Source: an uncultured Lachnospiraceae bacterium (GTDB lineage Bacteria; Bacillota; Clostridia; Lachnospirales; Lachnospiraceae). From it: a stretch of 62,577 nt of DNA. Where the stretch lies: positions 1-62,577 of the forward strand of contig CACZTL010000004.1 of NCBI GenBank assembly GCA_902784165.1, in the 5' to 3' direction. The notes below the pieces were generated by a model. That model had not been told where the DNA came from. It worked only from the letters and a program-made list of their open reading frames with translations, and ran no database searches. Shown here one piece after another: positions 4,178-62,577 of the stretch (position 1 is the stretch's first letter; each line of letters starts with the position of its first letter). Both the position numbers and the translations under genes were made by a program.

Positions 4178-5986
4178 TCAACTCAACACATCCTGTCTGC
4201 GCATCCACGCATCCGAATAAGCGTCACTTGGCATCAGAAATCCGCTGCGCGGCGAAAGTGAACACTTAAAAACCTTAGGTCCCACAGGCATACATGACCT
4301 CTTAAACTGATTATTAAAAAATCTTTTTATAAATATCTTAAGAGTTTCCTCTACAGTTTCCCGACTATAGTTTCCTTCAAACTTCCTGCAAGCGTATCCG
4401 GCGATTTGCTCAATACTCTCATACGTGCAGTAAAGCATATGATACAGGAAAAAATCATGCAGCGCATACGGACCGAGGCTGTCCTCCGTCTTTTGAATTA
4501 TTGTATCGTCTTTTCCGACCGGAAGCAGCTCAGGACTGACCGGGGTCTCTATTATATCTTCAATTATCTCAGAAATTAATTCCTTGTCAGCTCTGTCTGC
4601 AACACACGACACATATGTCCTGAGCACCGGCGCTATCACTGTTTTGGGGACTCCCGCATTTACACTGAAGTTCGACATATGATCGCCGTTATAAGTGCAC
4701 CACCCAAGCGCAAGCTCGGACATATCGCCCGTACCGATGACTATAGCATTTTCCTTGTTTGCGATATCCATAAGTATCATAGTCCTGGTACGAGCCTGAG
4801 CATTTTCAAATGTAATATCACTTTTAAATGTTTCAGTACCGTCTTCACCGGTTATTACCGGCTGTCCTATACTTCTCAGATGTGCACAAACCTGATCTTT
4901 TATATCAATCTCTGTAAGGGTAACACCGAAAGCTTTGGCCAGCCGATGTGCGTTTCCTTTGGTTTTTGCGCTCGTTCCGAAGCACGGCATAGTTACACAA
5001 AGGATATCCTTGCGGTCAAGTAAATATCTGTCAAATGCGTTTACTGCCGCCACAAGAGCAAGCGTGGAATCAAGCCCGCCGGAAAGTCCGAGCACTGCCT
5101 TTTTCATATGCAAAAACTTAAGCCTCTCTCCCAGAGCATATGCCTGAATCCTCATGATATCAAGGCATGCCTCGATAGACTTATCCTCGTCTGCCGGCAG
5201 AAACGAATAACTCTCGATGTAATTTATTTTCCTTCCCTTTAAGGGCTCTTCCGGATTATGATCAAAAATCCATATACCTTTTTTTGAAGTGCTGTCTGTG
5301 ACCTTGCCGCCCTGTATAACACATTTCAGACCGCAATATACACATTCATCCACTGACTCACCGGGACCTGATGATACACCGACTACACAGGTGTTATGCG
5401 ACTCTGATATTTCAGATAGCCGACTCAGATATTCGTCCCTGCATCCGGCATACATCTCGCCTGACCAAAGCAGAAAAACTAAATCGCTGTATTCGGAAAT
5501 CTTTCCATTTGCTCCCGCTAAAAAGTCATCATTTGATAAAGCGCCGGAAACGACTTTTGACGGCATGATAAATGCAGCATTTAACCCGCCTATCTCCATT
5601 TCACAGTCACTTGGCACAGCACTGAACTGCTCATCGCCTATCGTCAACGTCATGATCCTGCCCTGAGAAATAATCCGGTATATCTCTCCGTTGCCGATAA
5701 GCGCTATACATCCCTCATCATCTAAGGGAAATCCGACCGCCAGGAGCATATCCTTAAATTCCCGTGACGCCGCTTTTATCCTTGCCAGGGAATCTGTTAC
5801 GGACAGCCTTAAAGTCCCGGTTTTAAAAAGCGAGCCGCACGTACAGCCTGTAATCACAAATGGCGGAAAAACCGCTATATCACAGCCTTTCTTATACGCC
5901 TCTCCGGCTGATTCAATAATGGTACCGGCATTATAGTCACAGTCAGCCGTATGAATTTCGGGTGTTATTGCAGCAATCCTAATCAT
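4178..5986 (-). CDS. nadE: glutamine-dependent NAD+ synthetase
   Basis: 602 aa. N-terminal CN-hydrolase-like domain fused to an NAD synthetase domain with PP-loop SGGLDS. Confidence 0.85.
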   Translation of the reverse strand: MIRIAAITPEIHTADCDYNAGTIIESAGEAYKKGCDIAVFPPFVITGCTCGSLFKTGTLRLSVTDSLARIKAASREFKDMLLAVGFPLDDEGCIALIGNGEIYRIISQGRIMTLTIGDEQFSAVPSDCEMEIGGLNAAFIMPSKVVSGALSNDDFLAGANGKISEYSDLVFLLWSGEMYAGCRDEYLSRLSEISESHNTCVVGVSSGPGESVDECVYCGLKCVIQGGKVTDSTSKKGIWIFDHNPEEPLKGRKINYIESYSFLPADEDKSIEACLDIMRIQAYALGERLKFLHMKKAVLGLSGGLDSTLALVAAVNAFDRYLLDRKDILCVTMPCFGTSAKTKGNAHRLAKAFGVTLTEIDIKDQVCAHLRSIGQPVITGEDGTETFKSDITFENAQARTRTMILMDIANKENAIVIGTGDMSELALGWCTYNGDHMSNFSVNAGVPKTVIAPVLRTYVSCVADRADKELISEIIEDIIETPVSPELLPVGKDDTIIQKTEDSLGPYALHDFFLYHMLYCTYESIEQIAGYACRKFEGNYSRETVEETLKIFIKRFFNNQFKRSCMPVGPKVFKCSLSPRSGFLMPSDAYSDAWMRRQDVLS

Positions 5987-6006: not shown

Positions 6007-6076
6007 AGTGTGTCAGATGGGGACAGTCCCTTTGTGTCAGTTCTGACACAATGGGACTGTCCCCATCTGACACACC
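6007..6076. repeat. nested palindromic element, type A, full length
   Basis: AGTGTGTCAGATGGGGACAGTCCCTTTGTGTCAG-TT-CTGACACAATGGGACTGTCCCCATCTGACACAC. Lies between valS (stop 6086) and nadE (start 5986). Confidence 0.95.
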
Positions 6077-8753: not shown

Positions 8754-8823
8754 AGTGTGTCAGCCGGGGACAGTCCCTTTGTGTCAGTAATGACACAAAG
8801 GGACTGTCCCCGGCTGACACACT
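8754..8823. repeat. nested palindromic element, type A, full length
   Basis: Same consensus with spacers CC/GG. Lies 5 nt downstream of the CarD-like stop and 34 nt upstream of the valS start. Confidence 0.95.
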
Positions 8824-11397: not shown

Positions 11398-11467
11398 AGT
11401 GTGTCAAACGGGGACAGTCCCTTTGTGTCAGAACTGACACAAAGGGACTGTCCCCATCTGACACACT
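11398..11467. repeat. nested palindromic element, type A, full length
   Basis: Lies between the rpsT terminator and the pepD start. The left end reads TGTCAA (TTGACA on the minus strand). Confidence 0.95.
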
Positions 11468-19428: not shown

Positions 19429-22005
19429 TTATAAAACCCCGGTATAAAAACCGGCGCTGTAGCTGTTCCCCTCTTGCTTATATCTTCCCTCACCAAAACG
19501 CTTAAGTAACTTACGTGTTTCTTTTGCATCCTCATCTGTCAGGTCGATACGAAACCTGTAAATGCCCGTGCTGCCTTTGATATCCTCTGTCAGACTGACC
19601 GGTGTATGGTCATAAATAACATTATTACAATATCTGCAATCCGGATAAGCAATGTACTCATTGCCTTTCTCATCGGAAAACTCAAAAGGCTTGTCGTCCC
19701 TCGTGCAGCACCCTGTCGTTTTTCTTACACAGTGTTCACTAAGCATAAGTACCATTCGTCCGTATCCTACAGCCTCAGTCTTTTCAGTCAGACCTATCTT
19801 ACTGATCTCATCGCTTTTAAGCTCAACCGGAGCCGTAAAAAGCTCATGATAAAACCCAAGGCTCCGGGTCAGACCCGCTAAAAACTCAGCGGCTCTGCTG
19901 TTATAAGCATACACCTGATAGTCAGAAACTATACTGTATTTTTTCCCGGTACCGCTGCTGCTGACAAAAAATGACAACGCACACAGTTCATCGGCGCTCC
20001 TGACTAAAAATCCGTCCGGATCAAGTTTTAAGGCAAGTTTTATATCCTCTTTAAAAAGCTTTATATGTCGCTCCCTGAAAAAATGCGGGAGCGTGACAAA
20101 AAGCTCATTGCCGCTATCTTTCAGTTTATTGAGAAGCGCTGTGTCATTTAAAACCTTCCTTAAAACACGCGTTGAAACATATATTCTTGACAGTACTGTC
20201 CCGCACTCAAGCACGGCTTTTAGCTGCTCGGATGTATTTACTGACGCGGAAAAAGCAAGCCTTTCGGGCACACTCCCGCTTATTATATCATTTTTTTCAT
20301 TAATAGCAAACAAAAAATTGCTTTTCACACTTTTTTTGTTGTTTTTATGCTTGCTCAATATTTCTTCAGTAAGCTTTAAAATCCCTTTTCGCCTGAGGTC
20401 ATTGACCCCCCCGTTAGATATAAATATCCCGTCATCAGCTTCTACAGTCACTTCTGAGCATGAAAAGTCGGTTCCGCCGAGCTTGCACAGCCTTTTTTTC
20501 AGATCCTCTTTTGTTACTCCGGCATTTTTTGCTTTCTGTACGGTTTCTCCTCTAACCTCTACCTGCGCTCCGCTTTCCGGGTGTAGTATTTTAAGTATCG
20601 CAGGCTTATCCTTTTTGACCGTAAGCTTCATCTTAATATTTATCCGGGAAAACCTCACCTTTAGTGTGTCAGAGCGGGGACAGTCCCTTTGTGTCAGTCC
20701 TGACACAAAGGGACTGTCCCCATCCTGACACACTGAGTCAACAAAGCTTGCGCGGATATATTCCTGCAAAGCGCTGTCATTCATACGGTACAGGATATCA
20801 TTTTTTCTTATTCCGTACTTGGACGGCAGGTTTATCTCAAACACCCCGCCTTTCTTTACAGCCTTGCCGCTTGTGAATGAATTGCCGGTAGTTATTTCAA
20901 ACACATCCCCCGGATTTATATCCTCAAGCGTCCGAAACCTGATATGACCTTTACGGTTTTCTTCAACTTTCAGCGCAGCAACTCCCCTGTTATTCGGACG
21001 ATCAAGAGACATAAGAGAAATCCCCTTTCTTCCGGTAAACATCCCTTCGCTAAATGATCCTCTGTTATAAAGCGCTGCAAGCTTTCTTTTGTCACGCTCA
21101 AGCTCTTCAGGATCAGCTTTAATCATACCATCGTAAAGTCTGTCCAAATATTTTCTGTAAATGTGGGTTACTCCCGCAGCATAATAAACATTTTTCATCC
21201 TTCCTTCTATTTTAAAGGATCTGACTCCTGCCGCCGCAATCTTAGGCAAGAGAGAAAGAGCCGCGATATCCCTTGTGCATAAAAGCCTGTTCTTATTCTT
21301 TCCGTCGTCAAACATAAGCCTGCATGGCTGTGCGCAGCTGCCGCGGTTGCCGCTTCTTTGCCCGTGCATAGACGAAAAAAGACACTGACCGGAATAAGAA
21401 TAACAAAGAGCCCCATGAACAAAAGCCTCCAGCTCTATCCCTGTATGATCATAAATACTTCTTATTTCTTCAAGTGTCATCTCTCGCGGAAGAACAACCC
21501 TGGAAACTCCGATCTCTTTCAGCTTGGCTGCAAAAAATCGAGTCATCACAGCCATCTGTGTGCTTGCATGAATATTAAGCTCAGGTATTTTCTCGCGAAT
21601 CAGACTCAAGCAGCCGTAGTCCTGTACTATAACGGCATCCAGCCCGGCGCTGTACAATTCCTTAAGAAAAGGTATTATCTTACCAATCTCTTCTTCTTTA
21701 AGTAATGTATTTACCGTCAAATAAATATTAGCGCCCCGCAGATGAGCGTAATCCAGCGCCTGAATTATCTCTTCAATGCTCAGATTACCTGCATACGCGC
21801 GTGCGCTAAAACTTTTTCCTCCGAGATAAACAGCATCTGCTCCGGCATTTATCACTGCTTTACAGATATCAAGACTGCCTGCCGGCGCAAGAAGCTCAAG
21901 CGTTCTCTTTTTGGCTGATGCTGCTGTTTCCGTTTCGGTTATTTTCATATTGTTTTTGTTTATTAACTTGTTTATCGAATTCTTTTTCTTTGTTGTCATA
22001 GGCAC
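19429..22005 (-). CDS. U32-family peptidase, long form, carrying an in-frame repeat insertion
   Basis: 858 aa. U32 signature EAFVHGALCYSYSGQCLFSS in the N-terminal half. Residues about 424-447 (SVCQDGDSPFVSGLTQRDCPRSDTL) are encoded by repeat copy 20663..20734. Start is GTG 22005 or ATG 21999 behind AAGGA. Confidence 0.85.
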   Translation of the reverse strand: MPMTTKKKNSINKLINKNNMKITETETAASAKKRTLELLAPAGSLDICKAVINAGADAVYLGGKSFSARAYAGNLSIEEIIQALDYAHLRGANIYLTVNTLLKEEEIGKIIPFLKELYSAGLDAVIVQDYGCLSLIREKIPELNIHASTQMAVMTRFFAAKLKEIGVSRVVLPREMTLEEIRSIYDHTGIELEAFVHGALCYSYSGQCLFSSMHGQRSGNRGSCAQPCRLMFDDGKNKNRLLCTRDIAALSLLPKIAAAGVRSFKIEGRMKNVYYAAGVTHIYRKYLDRLYDGMIKADPEELERDKRKLAALYNRGSFSEGMFTGRKGISLMSLDRPNNRGVAALKVEENRKGHIRFRTLEDINPGDVFEITTGNSFTSGKAVKKGGVFEINLPSKYGIRKNDILYRMNDSALQEYIRASFVDSVCQDGDSPFVSGLTQRDCPRSDTLKVRFSRINIKMKLTVKKDKPAILKILHPESGAQVEVRGETVQKAKNAGVTKEDLKKRLCKLGGTDFSCSEVTVEADDGIFISNGGVNDLRRKGILKLTEEILSKHKNNKKSVKSNFLFAINEKNDIISGSVPERLAFSASVNTSEQLKAVLECGTVLSRIYVSTRVLRKVLNDTALLNKLKDSGNELFVTLPHFFRERHIKLFKEDIKLALKLDPDGFLVRSADELCALSFFVSSSGTGKKYSIVSDYQVYAYNSRAAEFLAGLTRSLGFYHELFTAPVELKSDEISKIGLTEKTEAVGYGRMVLMLSEHCVRKTTGCCTRDDKPFEFSDEKGNEYIAYPDCRYCNNVIYDHTPVSLTEDIKGSTGIYRFRIDLTDEDAKETRKLLKRFGEGRYKQEGNSYSAGFYTGVL
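20663..20734. repeat. nested palindromic element, type A, full length, inside the U32 peptidase CDS
   Basis: AGTGTGTCAGAGCGGGGACAGTCCCTTTGTGTCAGTCCTGACACAAAGGGACTGTCCCCATCCTGACACACT. It is 72 bp (24 codons) and is read without a stop in the gene frame. Confidence 0.95.
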
Positions 22006-25074: not shown

Positions 25075-26253
25075 TCAAATGACAATAAGTTCTGCTGTCT
25101 CGATCGCTTTATCCACCATCGGCTCCACTATTCCCTCCAGCCTCTTCTCATGCCTCTCTATGGCATCAAGTCTGGGCTTTGTAACGGGATGCTTTGCCAC
25201 AAATATAGTACAGCAATCCTCATATGGCTGGATAGAGGTTTCATAAGTCCCGATCTCCATCGCCTTTTCAACTATATCCTGCTTATCAAAAGCTATAAGA
25301 GGTCTGTACACCGGGAGCTCACACACCGCATTGGTACACAAAAGCCCCTGCATAGTTTGGCTTGCCACCTGCCCTATACTCTCTCCCGTTATAAGTCCTG
25401 TACAGCCCTCCTTTTTTGCCAGACTCTGCGCGATACGCATCATAAACCGACGCATGATTATGGTCATTTCATCATGCGGACAGTTTTTATATATCTCAAG
25501 CTGGATTTCCGTAAAATCTATAACATAAAGCTTCAAAGCCCCCGAATACTGCGAGACGATCCGCGCAAGATCTGCAACTTTTTGCTTTGCCCTCTCGCTT
25601 GTGTAAGGCGGAGCATGAAAATACGCTGCGCAAAGCTTAACACCTCTTTTTGATACCATATATCCCGCTACCGGCGAATCAATGCCGCCTGACAAAAGCA
25701 GCATAGCGCTCCCCGCCGTCCCTACCGGCATGCCGCCCGGTCCCTTTATAGCTTTCGAATAAATATTTATAACATTTCTTATCTCAACACTAAGCAATAC
25801 GTCCGGGTTATGAACATCTACGGAAAGCTCCGGATAGGCCTCAAGGAGGTCATGCCCAAGCTCTTCATTTATCTGCATGGAATTAAGAGGATAATTTTTC
25901 CTGGCTCTTCTTGCATCCACCTTAAATGTAAAACTTTTATCCTTATACTCTTTGTCAAAAAACTCAATTACATTTTTGCTTAGGTCATCATATCCGTTAT
26001 CCTCTATTTGGAATACGGGACAGATCCACACCAGCCCGAAAACCTTTTTAAGCCGGCAAACCGCATCATCATAGTCAAACTCATTCTCTGCTGATGCGTA
26101 TATTCTTCCCGACTCCTTAGTCACCTTAAAATCGCCGTCCGCGCCTTCAAGAGCACGCTCAACGGAACGCACCAGCGCATCCTCGAAAAGATGACGATTT
26201 TTCCCTTTGACTCCTATTTCTCCGTATTTAAGTAAAAATGCTTTATACATCAT
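25075..26253 (-). CDS. thiI: tRNA 4-thiouridine(8) synthase ThiI
   Basis: 392 aa. THUMP-type N-terminal half and PP-loop LSGGIDSPVA. Confidence 0.9.
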   Translation of the reverse strand: MMYKAFLLKYGEIGVKGKNRHLFEDALVRSVERALEGADGDFKVTKESGRIYASAENEFDYDDAVCRLKKVFGLVWICPVFQIEDNGYDDLSKNVIEFFDKEYKDKSFTFKVDARRARKNYPLNSMQINEELGHDLLEAYPELSVDVHNPDVLLSVEIRNVINIYSKAIKGPGGMPVGTAGSAMLLLSGGIDSPVAGYMVSKRGVKLCAAYFHAPPYTSERAKQKVADLARIVSQYSGALKLYVIDFTEIQLEIYKNCPHDEMTIIMRRFMMRIAQSLAKKEGCTGLITGESIGQVASQTMQGLLCTNAVCELPVYRPLIAFDKQDIVEKAMEIGTYETSIQPYEDCCTIFVAKHPVTKPRLDAIERHEKRLEGIVEPMVDKAIETAELIVI

Positions 26254-26285: not shown

Positions 26286-26355
26286 AGTGTGTCAGACGGG
26301 GACAGTCCCTTTGTGTCAGGTCTGACACAAAGGGACTGTCCCCGTCTGACACACT
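26286..26355. repeat. nested palindromic element, type A, full length
   Basis: Perfect arms with spacers AC/GT. Lies 18 nt downstream of the cysteine desulfurase stop and upstream of thiI. Confidence 0.95.
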
Positions 26356-26373: not shown

Positions 26374-27534
26374 TTACCTGCGCACAAACTGGCGCAAAAA
26401 AGGCACATGTTTTTTCAGCAGCTCTAACACCCTGTCTGTATCTTGCTTGTCAGTTTCAAAGCTAAAGCTAAACCTGATGATACTGTCAAGCTCCTCCCCT
26501 GTCGCACCCATAGCGGCAAGCGAAAAACTAAGTCCCGGTTTGTTTGATGAGCAAGCCGATCCCGAAGAAACATACACCCCATCGCTTTCAAGCTGATGAA
26601 GAAGAACCTCACTTTTTATGCCTTTAAATGCCGCGCATACTATATGAGGCGCAGCTGTTTTTAAATCCTGACAAAACACCTTTACATCTTCTATAGACAT
26701 CAGACCGTCAATAAAGCATTTCCGTATTTCACTCATTTTTGAAATCTTTTCTTCAAATGAATCTTCATAGACCTGTTCAAGCGCCTTGCTCATGCCAGCT
26801 ATTCCCGGCACATTTTCCGTACCGGAGCGAAAACCTTTTTGTTGTCCGCCTCCGCAGAGAAGAGGCTCACATTTCGTACCGTCTTTAATATAAAGAAATC
26901 CTACCCCCTTCGGTCCATGAAATTTATGAGCCGATGCCGTAACCATATCAGCTTTTATCTTTCCGGGTAACACTTTCAGTTTACCAAAGGCCTGTACGGC
27001 GTCCACATGAAAATATATATCTTTATTGTATTCCTTTATGACTGACCCGAGCTCCTCCACCGGCTGTATCGCTCCCGTTTCGTTATGAACATACATGATC
27101 GACACAAGCGTTGTTTCCTCAGTAAGGACGCTTTTAAGTTGTGACGCACTTATAAGACCTTTCTCATCAGGATCCAGATATGTTACCTTAAACCCTTCCT
27201 TTTCAAGCAAAAGAAAAGGCTCTCTGACACTCGGATGTTCCAGTTTAGTCGTTATGATATGCGTGCCGGATCTTATCCTTCTTCTTGCGGCTCCTATGAT
27301 AGCGGTATTATTGCCCTCTGTTGCACCTGAAGTAAAAAAAATCTCCTTCTCCTGTACTTTCATAAGAGAAGCTATTGTTTTACTTGATTCTTTTAAGACC
27401 TTCTCCGCCTCTACCCCCTTCATATGCTTTGAGGACGGATTGCCGTATGCGGTTCTCATCATTTCACATACCGTATCTGTTACGGCATCAAGCGGACGGG
27501 TAGTCGCCGCATTATCCATATATATTTCTTTCAT
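26374..27534 (-). CDS. cysteine desulfurase (NifS/IscS type)
   Basis: Start taken at ATG 27534 (MKEIYMDNAATT). PLP-Lys SAHKFHGPKG and active-site Cys SSGSACSS. Adjacent to thiI. Confidence 0.88.
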   Translation of the reverse strand: MKEIYMDNAATTRPLDAVTDTVCEMMRTAYGNPSSKHMKGVEAEKVLKESSKTIASLMKVQEKEIFFTSGATEGNNTAIIGAARRRIRSGTHIITTKLEHPSVREPFLLLEKEGFKVTYLDPDEKGLISASQLKSVLTEETTLVSIMYVHNETGAIQPVEELGSVIKEYNKDIYFHVDAVQAFGKLKVLPGKIKADMVTASAHKFHGPKGVGFLYIKDGTKCEPLLCGGGQQKGFRSGTENVPGIAGMSKALEQVYEDSFEEKISKMSEIRKCFIDGLMSIEDVKVFCQDLKTAAPHIVCAAFKGIKSEVLLHQLESDGVYVSSGSACSSNKPGLSFSLAAMGATGEELDSIIRFSFSFETDKQDTDRVLELLKKHVPFLRQFVRR

Positions 27535-27574
27535 TTTATTACGGACTCCCATGTAATAAATATATTAATTAACC

Positions 27575-31567: not shown

Positions 31568-32353
31568 CTACAAAAACTCCCCGGACTCCCCGAATCCTTC
31601 CGGATCCTTAAGAACCGTTATATCTATCTGCGCACCTACCCCCTCCTGTGTTACCGAAACAAATCCGCCCTTCATCATTTCAAGAAGGACAAGAAAGGTT
31701 ACTATCTCCGAAAGAATCCCGCCCTTTTCGTCAAGCAGATTTTTAAATGTCAGCTTCCTCTCACGCTTCATTACCGTCTTGATTCCCTGAACACGACCGG
31801 CAACATCCACCTTTTCGGCCTCTATTGTTCCAAAGCGGCTTCTTATCGGATCCTTTCTTTCCGCCGCACGTCTGAGAGCATCGGCAAACGCTCGGTTTAA
31901 TACATTAACATCCATACCGTACATGAGCTTGTCAAGATCAGGCGCCGGACGGTATTTAAGTACCTCGGACGGAATATCCTCATAACCGAAAAACCTCTTT
32001 TTGCCTACCTCCTCACCAAGCCTGAGTTTTCCTGAAAGGTACTTAATCATCTTAAGCTCAAGAAGTCTTTTAGTTAACTCCTCCTTCATAAGCTCGGGAT
32101 CCGTTTCCTCCTCTTCCTCTTCGGGCTTCGGAAGAAGCATTTTTGATTTGATCATCAAAAGCTGCGCAGCCATAACAAGAAATTCACTTGCTATATCAAG
32201 ATCATTTCTTGCCATCTCGCGCACATATTCAACATACTGGTCTGTTATCTGCGCTATGGGTATATCGTAAATATCTAATTTGTTTTTTTCTATCAGGTGT
32301 AAAAGGAGATCAAGCGGTCCCTCGAACACCTCAAGCTTAAATTTCAGTTCCAT
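31568..32353 (-). CDS. scpA: segregation and condensation protein A (kleisin)
   Basis: 261 aa. N-terminus FEGPLDLLLHLIEKNKLDIYDIPIA. Confidence 0.9.
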   Translation of the reverse strand: MELKFKLEVFEGPLDLLLHLIEKNKLDIYDIPIAQITDQYVEYVREMARNDLDIASEFLVMAAQLLMIKSKMLLPKPEEEEEETDPELMKEELTKRLLELKMIKYLSGKLRLGEEVGKKRFFGYEDIPSEVLKYRPAPDLDKLMYGMDVNVLNRAFADALRRAAERKDPIRSRFGTIEAEKVDVAGRVQGIKTVMKRERKLTFKNLLDEKGGILSEIVTFLVLLEMMKGGFVSVTQEGVGAQIDITVLKDPEGFGESGEFL

Positions 32354-32415
32354 ATTTTTTATCTCTAATCAAACCGTTACTGTCCCTATCCGAGTTACTA
32401 TTCAGCGATAATTGT

Positions 32416-32485
32416 AGTGTGTCAAACGGGGACAGTCCCTTTGTGTCAGTCCTGACACAAAGGGACTGTCCCCATTTGACACACT
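32416..32485. repeat. nested palindromic element, type A, full length
   Basis: Upstream of scpA. Both termini read TTGACA outward. Confidence 0.95.
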
Positions 32486-32513
32486 ACTGACCGAACGCTA
32501 AATTATAACCTAT

Positions 32514-32530
32514 CGACACACTTTGACACT
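32514..32530. repeat. tandem right-end fragments of the element
   Basis: CGACACACTTTGACACT. The TTGACA within it is the -35 of the candidate sRNA promoter. Confidence 0.55.
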
Positions 32531-32551
32531 TATATAATTTCATAGTATAAT
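32523..32551 (+). promoter_or_regulatory. consensus sigma-A promoter (TTGACA-17-TATAAT) on the plus strand
   Basis: TTGACA at 32523..32528, a 17-nt spacer, TATAAT at 32546..32551. No plus-strand CDS lies downstream. Confidence 0.65.
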
Positions 32552-32557
32552 ATATAC

Positions 32558-32741
32558 AAATCTGGAATGTTCGCCAGCCCGCATATTTTGATCCGACATA
32601 TTTGATACGGGACACCTATATCGAACAGTCGGATGTCAGGCCGTCATTCGAGCGGAAGACTGACGATTGCTCTGCGGAGACCCACCTGGCCGTTTGCCGG
32701 GAGTCATTCATGCGGACAACGGCATTCCGGATCTTTTTTTA
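32558..32741 (+). ncRNA. candidate ~180-nt structured small RNA, class unknown
   Basis: Consensus promoter (TTGACA-17-TATAAT) ends at 32551. A GC-richer segment follows with long-range pairing 32560-32569/32723-32732 and 32579-32584/32710-32715. It also contains the extended hairpin 32591-32634 and ends in a hairpin plus T7 run. No plausible ORF or RBS. Confidence 0.5.
32697..32740 (+). terminator. terminator of the candidate sRNA
   Basis: Plus strand: CCGGG...AUGC-ggacaacg-GCAU-UCCGG, then AUC and U7. Converges on the yihY-like stop codon. Confidence 0.55.
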
Positions 32742-33665
32742 TTTATCCTTGGTGTCCGCATCATTTTTTTTTCCTCTCTTGTTGTGAGGTGTACTGTCAC
32801 TCAAGACCTTAACTATCTTCCACTGCGAAATACGCATCCATTTCGGAAGTATTATCCATTTCTTTTCCAGAAAAGTATTAAACTCAGCGCCTATGAATAT
32901 GAATATGAATATAGCAAAAAGCCAGAAAAGTGTAAATATTACATTTGCTATACTTCCGTACATATAATTAAACTGAGGCGAATTAGATATAATCAGTGAA
33001 AATATAACCGTAAATACCATCGCTCCCAGCATCGCTATGATCGCTCCGGGAAGTGATCCCCAAAATGTTCCCTTCCTGTTCGGTACATATATATACATTG
33101 CCGTAAACATAGCAAGAAGTGAGGCAGGCACTATCAAAAGCCTCCAAAACATTATATGATGCAATATATTAGCCAATCCGGGAAATACAGGCTCTATATC
33201 TTTTATGATAAGCCCGCCGTAACCGTACAGCACCACGAGCAGCACTATCACAAACATAAATAAAAATGTGTAAGCCGTAGATTTCAAACGGCGTAACAGC
33301 CATGATTTTTGCGTCTTTACACCGTATATGGTATCAAGCGCTTTCATTATCGCCATAAACCCCTGACCGGCCGTGTAAACCGTAAATACGATAGAAAACG
33401 ACGTGATCAGAAACGATCGTTTTTCAAATATATCCTTGACAAAACCATCTATAAGACCTGCTATCTGAGGTGGTGCGGAAGCATTTATTATCTTCAGCAG
33501 ATCCTCCACCTGCACCGGGAATAATGTAAGGATATTGAGCAAAATCAGTAAAAACGGAAGGAAACAAGTCACTAAAAAAAAGACTGAAGCAGCAGCATAA
33601 TAAATACAGTTATCTTCAAAAAACTTGCTGAACATCTTTTTTATTGTCGGATCATAATTCGACAT
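32739..33665 (-). CDS. YihY/BrkB-family membrane protein
   Basis: 308 aa, about 6 TM segments, YihY-like N-terminal region with a Lys-rich tail. Confidence 0.75.
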   Translation of the reverse strand: MSNYDPTIKKMFSKFFEDNCIYYAAASVFFLVTCFLPFLLILLNILTLFPVQVEDLLKIINASAPPQIAGLIDGFVKDIFEKRSFLITSFSIVFTVYTAGQGFMAIMKALDTIYGVKTQKSWLLRRLKSTAYTFLFMFVIVLLVVLYGYGGLIIKDIEPVFPGLANILHHIMFWRLLIVPASLLAMFTAMYIYVPNRKGTFWGSLPGAIIAMLGAMVFTVIFSLIISNSPQFNYMYGSIANVIFTLFWLFAIFIFIFIGAEFNTFLEKKWIILPKWMRISQWKIVKVLSDSTPHNKRGKKNDADTKDK

Positions 33666-33673
33666 AAACGCTT

Positions 33674-34222
33674 TTAAACCCTTCCGCCTCTTACCGGTGT
33701 ATCAAAATCTATATCCTTTATCTCATAACCTGAGAGCTCTACAGCCTCTATTATCACATCTTCATCTACTCCGAGATACTCAGATAACTCCTTAGGTGTC
33801 GGCTTGATTCCGTATTCTGTACAAAATCTTTCTACTCCTTCGTTTATCAGATTTACCTTGGCAAGTATCTCTTCACCTGCTTTTTTTGACTGTTCTTCAG
33901 ACTTAGTAAGAACAATCAAAGCCTCTTCACAGCCCGAGCTTACTTCATGTATAATCTCCCGAAACACCTCCGTCTGCGTTTCAGTTTCACCGGTTAATAT
34001 ACGTTCTCTCCTGTTATTCTTTTCTATAAAGGCGCCTCCCAAAATAACCTCAGAAATAACAAGAGCGCATTCCTGCCTCAGGTCTTCTTCCGGTACACCC
34101 TTTCCCTTAAAATCCCTTATATAATCATCCGAAAAGCCTAAAAAAATATCCAGGAGCTTATTAATATCCTCCTGCTCATTATTCAAAGCTATATCTTTAA
34201 GTAAAAATATATACTCATTCAT
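33674..34222 (-). CDS. hypothetical acidic protein with a sigma-70 region-3-like segment
   Basis: Start moved to ATG 34222 (GGGGA upstream), which avoids overlap with the GNAT gene. The C-terminal YGIKPTPKELSEYLGVDEDVIIEAVELSG resembles a sigma region 3 HTH. No region 2 or region 4 seen. Confidence 0.4.
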   Translation of the reverse strand: MNEYIFLLKDIALNNEQEDINKLLDIFLGFSDDYIRDFKGKGVPEEDLRQECALVISEVILGGAFIEKNNRRERILTGETETQTEVFREIIHEVSSGCEEALIVLTKSEEQSKKAGEEILAKVNLINEGVERFCTEYGIKPTPKELSEYLGVDEDVIIEAVELSGYEIKDIDFDTPVRGGRV

Positions 34223-34223
34223 A

Positions 34224-34658
34224 TCATGATTCCCCGAATTCATTTTTAAGAACCAGTGTCAGACCGGATCCGAATCTCTCATTCGGACGTCTTACAAAGC
34301 CGCATTTTTCATAAAAGCTTTCAGTGCCCTTTACACTCATAAGACCCAGGTACATCTGTGTACCCGGCAATACCATATCCCTCGCGCTTTGTATAAGCCT
34401 GTCTACGATATTCCTTCCTATCCTCTGTCCCTGATAATCAGGATCCACCATCACATCCTGGATGTAACAAATGACTGCACCGTCACCTATAAGACGCCCC
34501 ATACCGGCCAGTCTGCTTCCGTCATAAGCGCATATTACTTTGATAGCATTATTAAGTGATTTATGAGCCTGATCCTCTGAAATCTCAAAAAAGCCGACCT
34601 TTTTTCTAAGTGCTCTGTACACATCGGTAAATGGCTTTATTTCGTTATAAACTATCAT
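34224..34658 (-). CDS. GNAT-family N-acetyltransferase
   Basis: 144 aa. Acetyl-CoA motif A VDPDYQGQRIGRNIV. Confidence 0.85.
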   Translation of the reverse strand: MIVYNEIKPFTDVYRALRKKVGFFEISEDQAHKSLNNAIKVICAYDGSRLAGMGRLIGDGAVICYIQDVMVDPDYQGQRIGRNIVDRLIQSARDMVLPGTQMYLGLMSVKGTESFYEKCGFVRRPNERFGSGLTLVLKNEFGES

Positions 34659-37870: not shown

Positions 37871-37898
37871 AAAAAAAGAGACCGACTTAGGTCTCTTT
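37871..37898 (-). terminator. intrinsic terminator after tmRNA
   Basis: Minus strand: AGAGACC-UAAGUC-GGUCUCU followed by U7. Confidence 0.8.
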
Positions 37899-37900
37899 AG

Positions 37901-38288
37901 TGGAGTAGACGAGAATCGAACTCGTGTCCGGAAAACGCTCCGTACGGTCTTCTACTATCATAGTTGATCATTTGCTCAAAGCTGTTTAAACCACATTCCG
38001 GGAATCAACGCCGGCACATGGCCGAGCCCTGTAATATCGCCCGCCGGCCACAAGACATCACCGTCGGGAGTACCCCGCAAAATATAAGACCCGGACTCCG
38101 ATCCTGCGGGCAAACCGGACCGGACCGCCGTTTATAGAAGAAACGGCCTTTGGTTGCTGCTTAACCTAAATTAGGCAGCAAGCGCTAAATCATAATCGTC
38201 TTCAGCGTTTAATTTAAAAGAACGTTTAACGCACGCCTGCGGATAGCTTCTCCGTCTTTACATTCCCCGTCGAAACCTTTACTACCCC
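37901..38288 (-). ncRNA. ssrA: tmRNA (ssrA)
   Basis: The 5' GGGGTAG pairs with 3' CTACTCC, including the G3:U alanine identity pair. T-arm ACGAGTTCGATTCTCGT. Internal tag frame GCT GAA GAC GAT TAT GAT TTA GCG CTT GCT GCC TAA = AEDDYDLALAA. CCA is not encoded. Confidence 0.93.
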
Positions 38289-53869: not shown

Positions 53870-53938
53870 AGTGTGTCAGAACGGGGACAGTCCCTTTGTG
53901 TCAACGTGACACAAAGGGACTGTCCCCGTTCTGACACT
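53870..53938. repeat. nested palindromic element, type A, full length (2-nt terminal deletion)
   Basis: Spacers AAC/GTT and loop ACG. Lies between the trpB2 terminator and the mtaB start. Confidence 0.93.
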
Positions 53939-56293: not shown

Positions 56294-56366
<73 letters not shown>

Positions 56367-62509: not shown

Positions 62510-62577
62510 AGTGTGTCAGATGGGGACAGTCCCTTTGTGTCAGTGCTGACACAAAGGGACTGTCCCCATTTGACACA
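62510..62577. repeat. nested palindromic element, type A, cut by the window edge
   Basis: AGTGTGTCAGATGGGGACAGTCCCTTTGTGTCAGTGCTGACACAAAGGGACTGTCCCCATTTGACACA, upstream of ilvD. Confidence 0.9.

Follow-up and report, generated by a model that had tools for sequence, protein, structure and literature searches.

The segment at positions 32556-32740 on the plus strand of the window, by which we mean the whole stretch of 62,577 nucleotides analysed here (contig CACZTL010000004.1 of assembly GCA_902784165.1), is almost certainly, with a probability of about 0.95, ssrS, the gene that encodes 6S RNA in an uncultured Lachnospiraceae bacterium of the rumen. This small RNA is well known and abundant; by imitating an open promoter it restrains the housekeeping RNA polymerase. 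A first-pass annotation had proposed at this place an independent structured RNA of ~180 nt on the plus strand, possibly 6S-like, and the proposal has been borne out by a match to the Rfam family RF00013, by covariation among relatives and by contigs assembled from RNA. The segment is of an already known kind: an ordinary, expressed 6S gene within a curated family. On the basis of an invariant hairpin in the 3′ strand of its central bubble and of a predicted G-initiated product RNA (pRNA), it can be classed as Bacillus subtilis 6S-1-like.

Family match and gene neighbourhood

In a cmscan search of both strands against Rfam, 6S/SsrS (RF00013) was matched at 32556-32737 on the plus strand with 75.5 bits (GA 46.4, E 4.4e-13), and the match spans positions 1-187 of the 187 of the model, i.e., its full length. 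A covariance model of the clade gives 210.8 bits on the same gene. The 5′ end is predicted 5-7 nt past the -10 box, and the length from this start to the T-run, ~180-185 nt, can be compared with the ~180-200 nt expected of a 6S rod. The 6S consensus of the two bubble strands (5′ ...UGAnCCGA..., 3′ ...ACCCACCUGG...) was also tested: UGAUCCGACA and ACCCACCUGG are invariant in 7/7 sequences, the window and six relatives, and agree with the upper-case positions of the Rfam consensus. The minus strand of the segment has no family match in Rfam, and the search that the first-pass annotation had suggested as a check thus returned 6S/SsrS on the plus strand and found no leader element on the other. 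That annotation had failed to match the segment to SRP RNA, RNase P RNA or a GEMM riboswitch, in agreement with cmscan, by which none of the three reaches its gathering score at any position of the window. Apart from 6S, Rfam matches in the whole window are limited to a tmRNA and one tRNA. The tmRNA gene lies at 37898-38288 on the minus strand (RF00023, 136.2 bits, full length), and the tRNA gene at 56294-56366, also on the minus strand (RF00005, 70.7 bits), has the anticodon loop UUGCCAA and is probably tRNA-Gly(GCC).

The neighbours of the 6S gene had been described as lying on the minus strand without exception, and this is the case for the M18 aminopeptidase gene, scpB, scpA (31568-32353), the gene for a BrkB/YihY-family membrane protein (32739-33665), and the GNAT acetyltransferase and histidine kinase genes; of the 51 ORFs in the window with a length of 180 aa or more, 43 are on the minus strand. 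Between the BrkB-like and GNAT genes lies an ORF of 189 aa (33674-34243, minus strand) with no confident Pfam family and a weak, sub-threshold TPR-like match, and the corresponding place is taken in L040 and L044 by ORFs of 182 and 259 aa, respectively, without Pfam matches.

Conservation of the spacer in related genomes had been named as a further check, and an RNA with covariation was indeed found between scpA and the BrkB/YihY-like gene in all six relatives, whose ScpA proteins are 89-62% identical to that of the window and whose 6S matches score 65.9-82.5 bits. The highest of these belongs to L001, a rumen Lachnospiraceae MAG with an 86% identical ScpA, which has 6S in the same place at 82.5 bits. 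Five further loci, obtained by a protein search and fetching of the contigs (ScpA 89, 71, 68, 63 and 62% identical), hold 6S in the gap with 65.9-73.5 bits, on the strand opposite to the genes. The order BrkB-like gene, gap, scpA, scpB, M18 peptidase gene and prmA is kept in the relatives with enough flanking sequence. When the window is compared with L001, identity is ~93% over the -35, the -10 and the RNA as far as the T-run, and both flanks hardly align, so that the footprint of conservation consists of the promoter core and the RNA body only. L042 and L046 were left out, as their contigs end too near scpA to hold a 6S gene.

With the Rfam and clade models, no 6S gene was found beside scpA at ScpA identities of 53% or less, nor at genome-contig loci at 45% or less; the synteny of 6S and scpA is therefore shallow. 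The neighbourhood of 6S in lactic acid bacteria is likewise conserved only within a family-level group (PMC8414754). The flanking genes themselves differ, being rarA and a universal stress protein gene in Lactobacillales (PMC8414754), unlike the BrkB-like gene and scpA here. At a distant, Blautia-like ScpA locus (L051), a THF riboswitch (RF01831, 82.9 bits) was found at 5500-5597 on the minus strand upstream of an ECF-transporter-like gene; it is unrelated to 6S. A scan of metagenomes with a DNA pattern anchored on the two bubble strands yielded 27 loci, none of which (0/27) resembles the RNA by blastn or nhmmer, and they were set aside as chance matches.

Secondary structure and covariation

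Folded as a single sequence, the RNA has a minimum free energy (MFE) of -66.1 kcal/mol (z = -3.57 against dinucleotide shuffles, none of 200 of which was as good). An alignment of seq­uences from the window and the six relatives (seven in all, mean identity 85%) was used for a consensus fold by RNAalifold, and this consensus is the canonical 6S rod, with a closing stem, a large central bubble and an apical arm. Standard pairs occupy 97.6% of the cells over the 47 consensus pairs, as against 35-46% when the partners are slid. Compensatory double changes occur in 14 of the 47 pairs; shuffles give 6.5±1.7 (0/500 reach 14) and the slid controls 2-6.

The closing stem of 13 bp (helix 1), formed by 32560-32573 with 32720-32732, is 98.9% paired with two pairs changed on both sides, and it contains the pairing of 32560-32569 with 32723-32732 that had been drawn from the single sequence. 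On its inner side follow helix 2 (32577-32583 with 32711-32717; 95.9% paired, three pairs changed on both sides) and helix 3 (32589-32592 with 32703-32706), which is invariant. The earlier pairing of 32579-32584 with 32710-32715 falls here, and compensatory changes are seen for it in the relatives. By analogy with B. subtilis 6S-1, helices 32577-32583 and 32589-32592 would correspond to the P2/downstream helix, which pRNA synthesis would unwind (PMC8876501). The 3′ strands of these helices and of the closing stem together make up 32703-32732, as placed by the consensus and covariation.

The 5′ strand of the central bubble, the 16 nt CCGACAUAUUUGAUAC at 32593-32608, is unpaired in the consensus; it aligns with the Rfam consensus CuGAgCCgA, and 32587-32598 is invariant in the seven sequences. 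The apical arm (32609-32683) consists of helices 4-7, i.e., 32609-32616 with 32676-32683, 32627-32631 with 32664-32668, 32635-32637 with 32658-32660, and 32641-32644 with 32652-32655, which are 89-100% paired and include nine pairs changed on both sides. The 3′ strand of the bubble (32684-32702) carries a small hairpin with a stem of 6 bp (32685-32690 with 32696-32701) and a loop at 32691-32695. This hairpin is seen in the consensus as well as in the single-sequence fold; its stem is invariant in the seven sequences and so stands without proof from covariation, and its loop varies (CGUUU, GGUGU, CUGAU, CUACU). The conserved ACCCACCUGG motif at 32680-32689 overlaps the start of the hairpin.

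The single-sequence MFE structure closes part of the bubble, unlike the consensus. It contains the extended hairpin that had been drawn at 32591-32597/32628-32634 and 32601-32607/32619-32625, yet the two parts of this hairpin are only 63% and 84% paired in the relatives, no better than in shuffles, and what it uses as 5′ arm is the 5′ strand that stays open in the central bubble of 6S. No clean 6S fold had been recognized at first because the single-sequence fold closes this strand into an unconserved local hairpin. The pairing CGUCA/UGACG had to be given up as well: its 3′ arm was placed off by one (UGACG is at 32661-32665), it is 67% paired, no better than shuffles, and the conserved apical helix is instead that of 32641-32644 with 32652-32655. 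The imperfect direct repeat pointed out in the segment does exist (14 nt, 86% identity); it is not kept as a repeat in the relatives and has been treated as chance.

In B. subtilis 6S-1, a central bubble collapse helix forms between the distal part of the 5′ bubble strand and the 3′ strand of P2 once the pRNA has been made. No convincing counterpart was identified in the alignment of seven or when the RNA was refolded with its template blocked. A 4-bp UGAU/GUCA option (32603-32606 with 32703-32706) was spotted by eye and is lost in L041, and the fold with the template blocked gave another rearrangement than bubble collapse.

Transcription and the position opposite scpA

The perfect TTGACA-17-TATAAT promoter noted at the outset was recovered by a promoter scan as the best site of the region: a sigma-A/sigma-70-type promoter on the plus strand at 32523-32551, with the -35 TTGACA at 32523-32528, a 17-nt spacer and the -10 TATAAT at 32546-32551, matching the consensus at 12 of 12 positions. 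All seven loci share GTATAAT and the TTG of the -35 without change, and the sequence upstream of the -35 has diverged. The segment is GC-rich relative to its surroundings, as had been remarked, with a GC content of 0.53 in the RNA body, 0.15 in the promoter stretch, 0.36 in the 3′ flank and 0.43 in the whole window.

At the other end, a run of seven T residues (32734-32740, plus strand) lies directly 3′ of the closing stem and is likely an intrinsic termination signal; six of its seven T residues are invariant across 7/7 loci. The first-pass annotation had combined this run, correctly located, with a hairpin at 32697-32740, and this local hairpin proved weak (-9.8 kcal/mol, z = -0.76), no better than shuffles. 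A terminator search of the 6S region found no compact intrinsic terminator; the closing stem of the whole RNA is taken as the putative terminator stem, which together with the conserved U-run would end transcription.

RNA from this segment was found in eight metatranscriptome runs, which come from six studies of rumen or gut, as contigs within 32562-32732 and one running to 32813; in one of the runs the depth rises to ~60. Over scpA the depth is zero in the eight runs, and for the brkB-like gene there is a single weak match of 90-95% identity. The 6S RNA accumulates as a discrete RNA far above the neighbouring mRNAs. The RNA check proposed earlier has thus been answered as to coverage, there being RNA over the segment and almost nothing beside it, and not as to strand: the data are assembled contigs that carry neither strand nor true ends, and because of this the strand and the 5′ and 3′ ends of the RNA are deduced from the covariance model together with the promoter and T-run. 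The plus strand is supported by the covariance model, by the conserved promoter and T-run, and by G-U pairs that the minus strand would lose. The ends of the contigs (32572, ~32730) are probably assembly breaks rather than RNA ends, since polymorphic sites adjoin them at 32571 and 32731. Run X36 also holds the L001-type 6S allele as RNA. The contig of run X30 (32583-32813) continues for ~70 nt beyond the T-run and enters the end of the BrkB-like gene, which is convergent; this extra stretch could stem from read-through at the T-run, from the 3′ end of the convergent mRNA, or from DNA. The contig of run X37 (32562-32685) joins 32685 back to 32562 ('goes back 124', with a 4-nt overlap), probably an artefact of template switching or of assembly on an RNA that is abundant and structured.

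The gap between the BrkB-like gene and scpA measures 385 nt in the window and ~220-275 nt in the relatives, and it is wider in the window because of a dispersed palindromic repeat. This repeat of ~74 bp at 32414-32487 has 36-nt arms that are 97% complementary, a 2-nt centre and the core GTCARAYGGGGACAGTCCCTTTGTGTCAG. It occurs in eight copies in 62.5 kb, the others being at ~6012-6071, 8759-8818, 11403-11462, 20676-20720, 26291-26350, 53883-53926 and 62515-62574. The six copies checked against ORFs are all intergenic, often a few tens of nt from minus-strand start or stop codons. None was found in the relatives' loci, and the repeat is absent from the 6S spacer of L001 and L040. It looks REP- or MITE-like. 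Two RNA contigs, from runs X33 and X30, match part of the palindrome and differ in their flanks, suggesting transcription of other copies. One copy separates two adjacent minus-strand ORFs (25075-26253 and 26374-27552), both of 392 aa, which may be a tandem duplication.

In L040, where positions 2461-2503 are equivalent to 32354-32555 of the window, the ATG of scpA is 6 nt from the -35 of 6S. The ribosome-binding site of scpA therefore lies inside the 6S promoter. No promoter-like site on the scpA strand was found in the gap of L040, and any scpA transcript in that genome would probably cross the entire 6S gene in antisense. In the enlarged spacer of the window, promoter-like sites on the minus strand are present at 32529-32502 (GTGTCA-16-TATAAT, back to back with the -35 of 6S) and at 32425-32397 (inside the palindrome). 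One could imagine a positional coupling in which transcription of scpAB through the gap yields an mRNA that includes the complete anti-6S sequence, and the two transcription units collide head-on, with scpAB expression tied to the 6S promoter or the mRNA acting as a 6S sponge. We regard this as improbable; were it true, chromosome-condensation genes would be coupled to the activity of the 6S promoter, and the REP-like palindrome that separates 6S from scpA in the window could loosen such coupling. A literature search found no link between 6S and the segregation gene scpA, its matches concerning the streptococcal C5a peptidase of the same name.

The same arrangement could be read more radically, the RNA being a cis-antisense regulator that opposes transcription from the BrkB-like gene into scpA-scpB or pairs with the mRNA, and its likeness to 6S being secondary. 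The placement of all neighbours on the opposite strand would suit such a regulator, as would the 6-nt spacing and the gap without an scpA-strand promoter-like site in L040. However, the full-length 6S match and the long-range covariation argue for selection on the RNA's own fold, scpA has no RNA coverage in the eight runs, and the synteny is lost at ScpA identities of 53% or less while 6S is widespread, so that position would have at most an added effect. Antisense regulation as the main role is thus very unlikely, and 6S RNA is the preferred reading. Still less credible is an element of the minus strand, whether it belonged to the BrkB-like gene, as 3′ UTR or terminator, or to scpA, as leader: the segment does lie between two minus-strand genes and a long palindromic rod would fold on that strand too, but cmscan, run on both strands, gave no match there, the promoter, perfect and conserved, faces the plus strand as does the T-run, and U-G pairs (e.g., 32561/32731, 32563/32729 and 32570/32722) become A-C mismatches when the minus strand is read. 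A small protein is equally far from credible. The first-pass annotation had seen no ORF preceded by a ribosome-binding site; plus-strand ORFs do overlap the RNA (61 aa from TTG 32602, 59 aa from 32633), but the same frame has stops in L047, L044 and L045 and a frameshift in L001, and the substitutions are compensating base pairs with no codon pattern.

Predicted product RNA and comparison with known 6S RNAs

A 6S rod that imitates an open promoter and occupies the RNA polymerase holoenzyme belongs to the general biology of the family (PMC8414754, PMC8876501). By analogy with B. subtilis and E. coli, the rod would mimic an open promoter here too by virtue of its open bubble and fill the active site of RNA polymerase in its sigma-A holoenzyme form, and this capture would damp housekeeping transcription once nutrients run out. 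When NTPs are back, the polymerase would copy the 5′ bubble strand, starting at C32597 and reading towards 32584, into a short product RNA predicted to be 5′-GUCGGAUCAAAAUA. The hybrid of this pRNA with 32584-32597 would unwind the adjacent helices, refold 6S and free the polymerase. Polymerase binding and pRNA synthesis in the source organism are inferred from the biology of the family in those two species.

The start at C32597 is predicted by alignment to the Rfam consensus. This residue is invariant in 7/7 sequences, and a template C predicts a G-initiated pRNA, with the 5′ start 5′-GUCGGAUC.... The pRNA of B. subtilis 6S-1 is 5′-GUUCGGUCAAAACU (PMC12005410), and its efficient synthesis needs a G start (PMC3753640). 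Ten of the 14 positions of the predicted GUCGGAUCAAAAUA agree with GUUCGGUCAAAACU, among them the G start and the run of four A residues at 9-12 (PMC12005410, PMC3753640).

The RNA resembles B. subtilis 6S-1 (bsrA, of the Firmicutes type) in several respects: both are ~190 nt in length, with a closing stem, a central bubble whose 5′ strand is open and an apical arm, and both have a sigma-A promoter of their own. In 6S-1, a small hairpin is pre-formed in the 3′ bubble strand (PMC8876501), as is predicted here, and the G-starting pRNA begins at a C ~40 nt from the 5′ end, which is C40 in 6S-1 and would be C42 in the present RNA. The location of the gene between the BrkB/YihY-like gene and scpA, on the opposite strand, sets it apart from 6S-1.

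With E. coli SsrS, the RNA shares the Rfam family and the architecture, and its template motif UGAUCCGAC aligns with UGAGCCGAU of E. coli. The ssrS gene of E. coli is co-transcribed with ygfA and its transcript is then processed, unlike the gene here, where a T-run directly follows the RNA. The 3′ bubble strand of E. coli 6S is unstructured until pRNA synthesis, upon which it forms a 9-bp hairpin, and the pRNA starts with A (PMC8876501, PMC3753640); in contrast, a 6-bp hairpin in the free RNA and a G start are predicted here. The 6S RNAs of lactic acid bacteria have the canonical structure and TATAAT at -10 in common with this one, and possess a 3′ intrinsic terminator there (PMC8414754).

The finding raises no new question about 6S RNA. 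It settles the annotation of the segment, in that the sole plus-strand gene in a long minus-strand region is that of 6S RNA. What is gained is a covariation-supported, expressed 6S RNA from an uncultured rumen Lachnospiraceae bacterium, with a predicted pRNA that can be searched for in small-RNA data.
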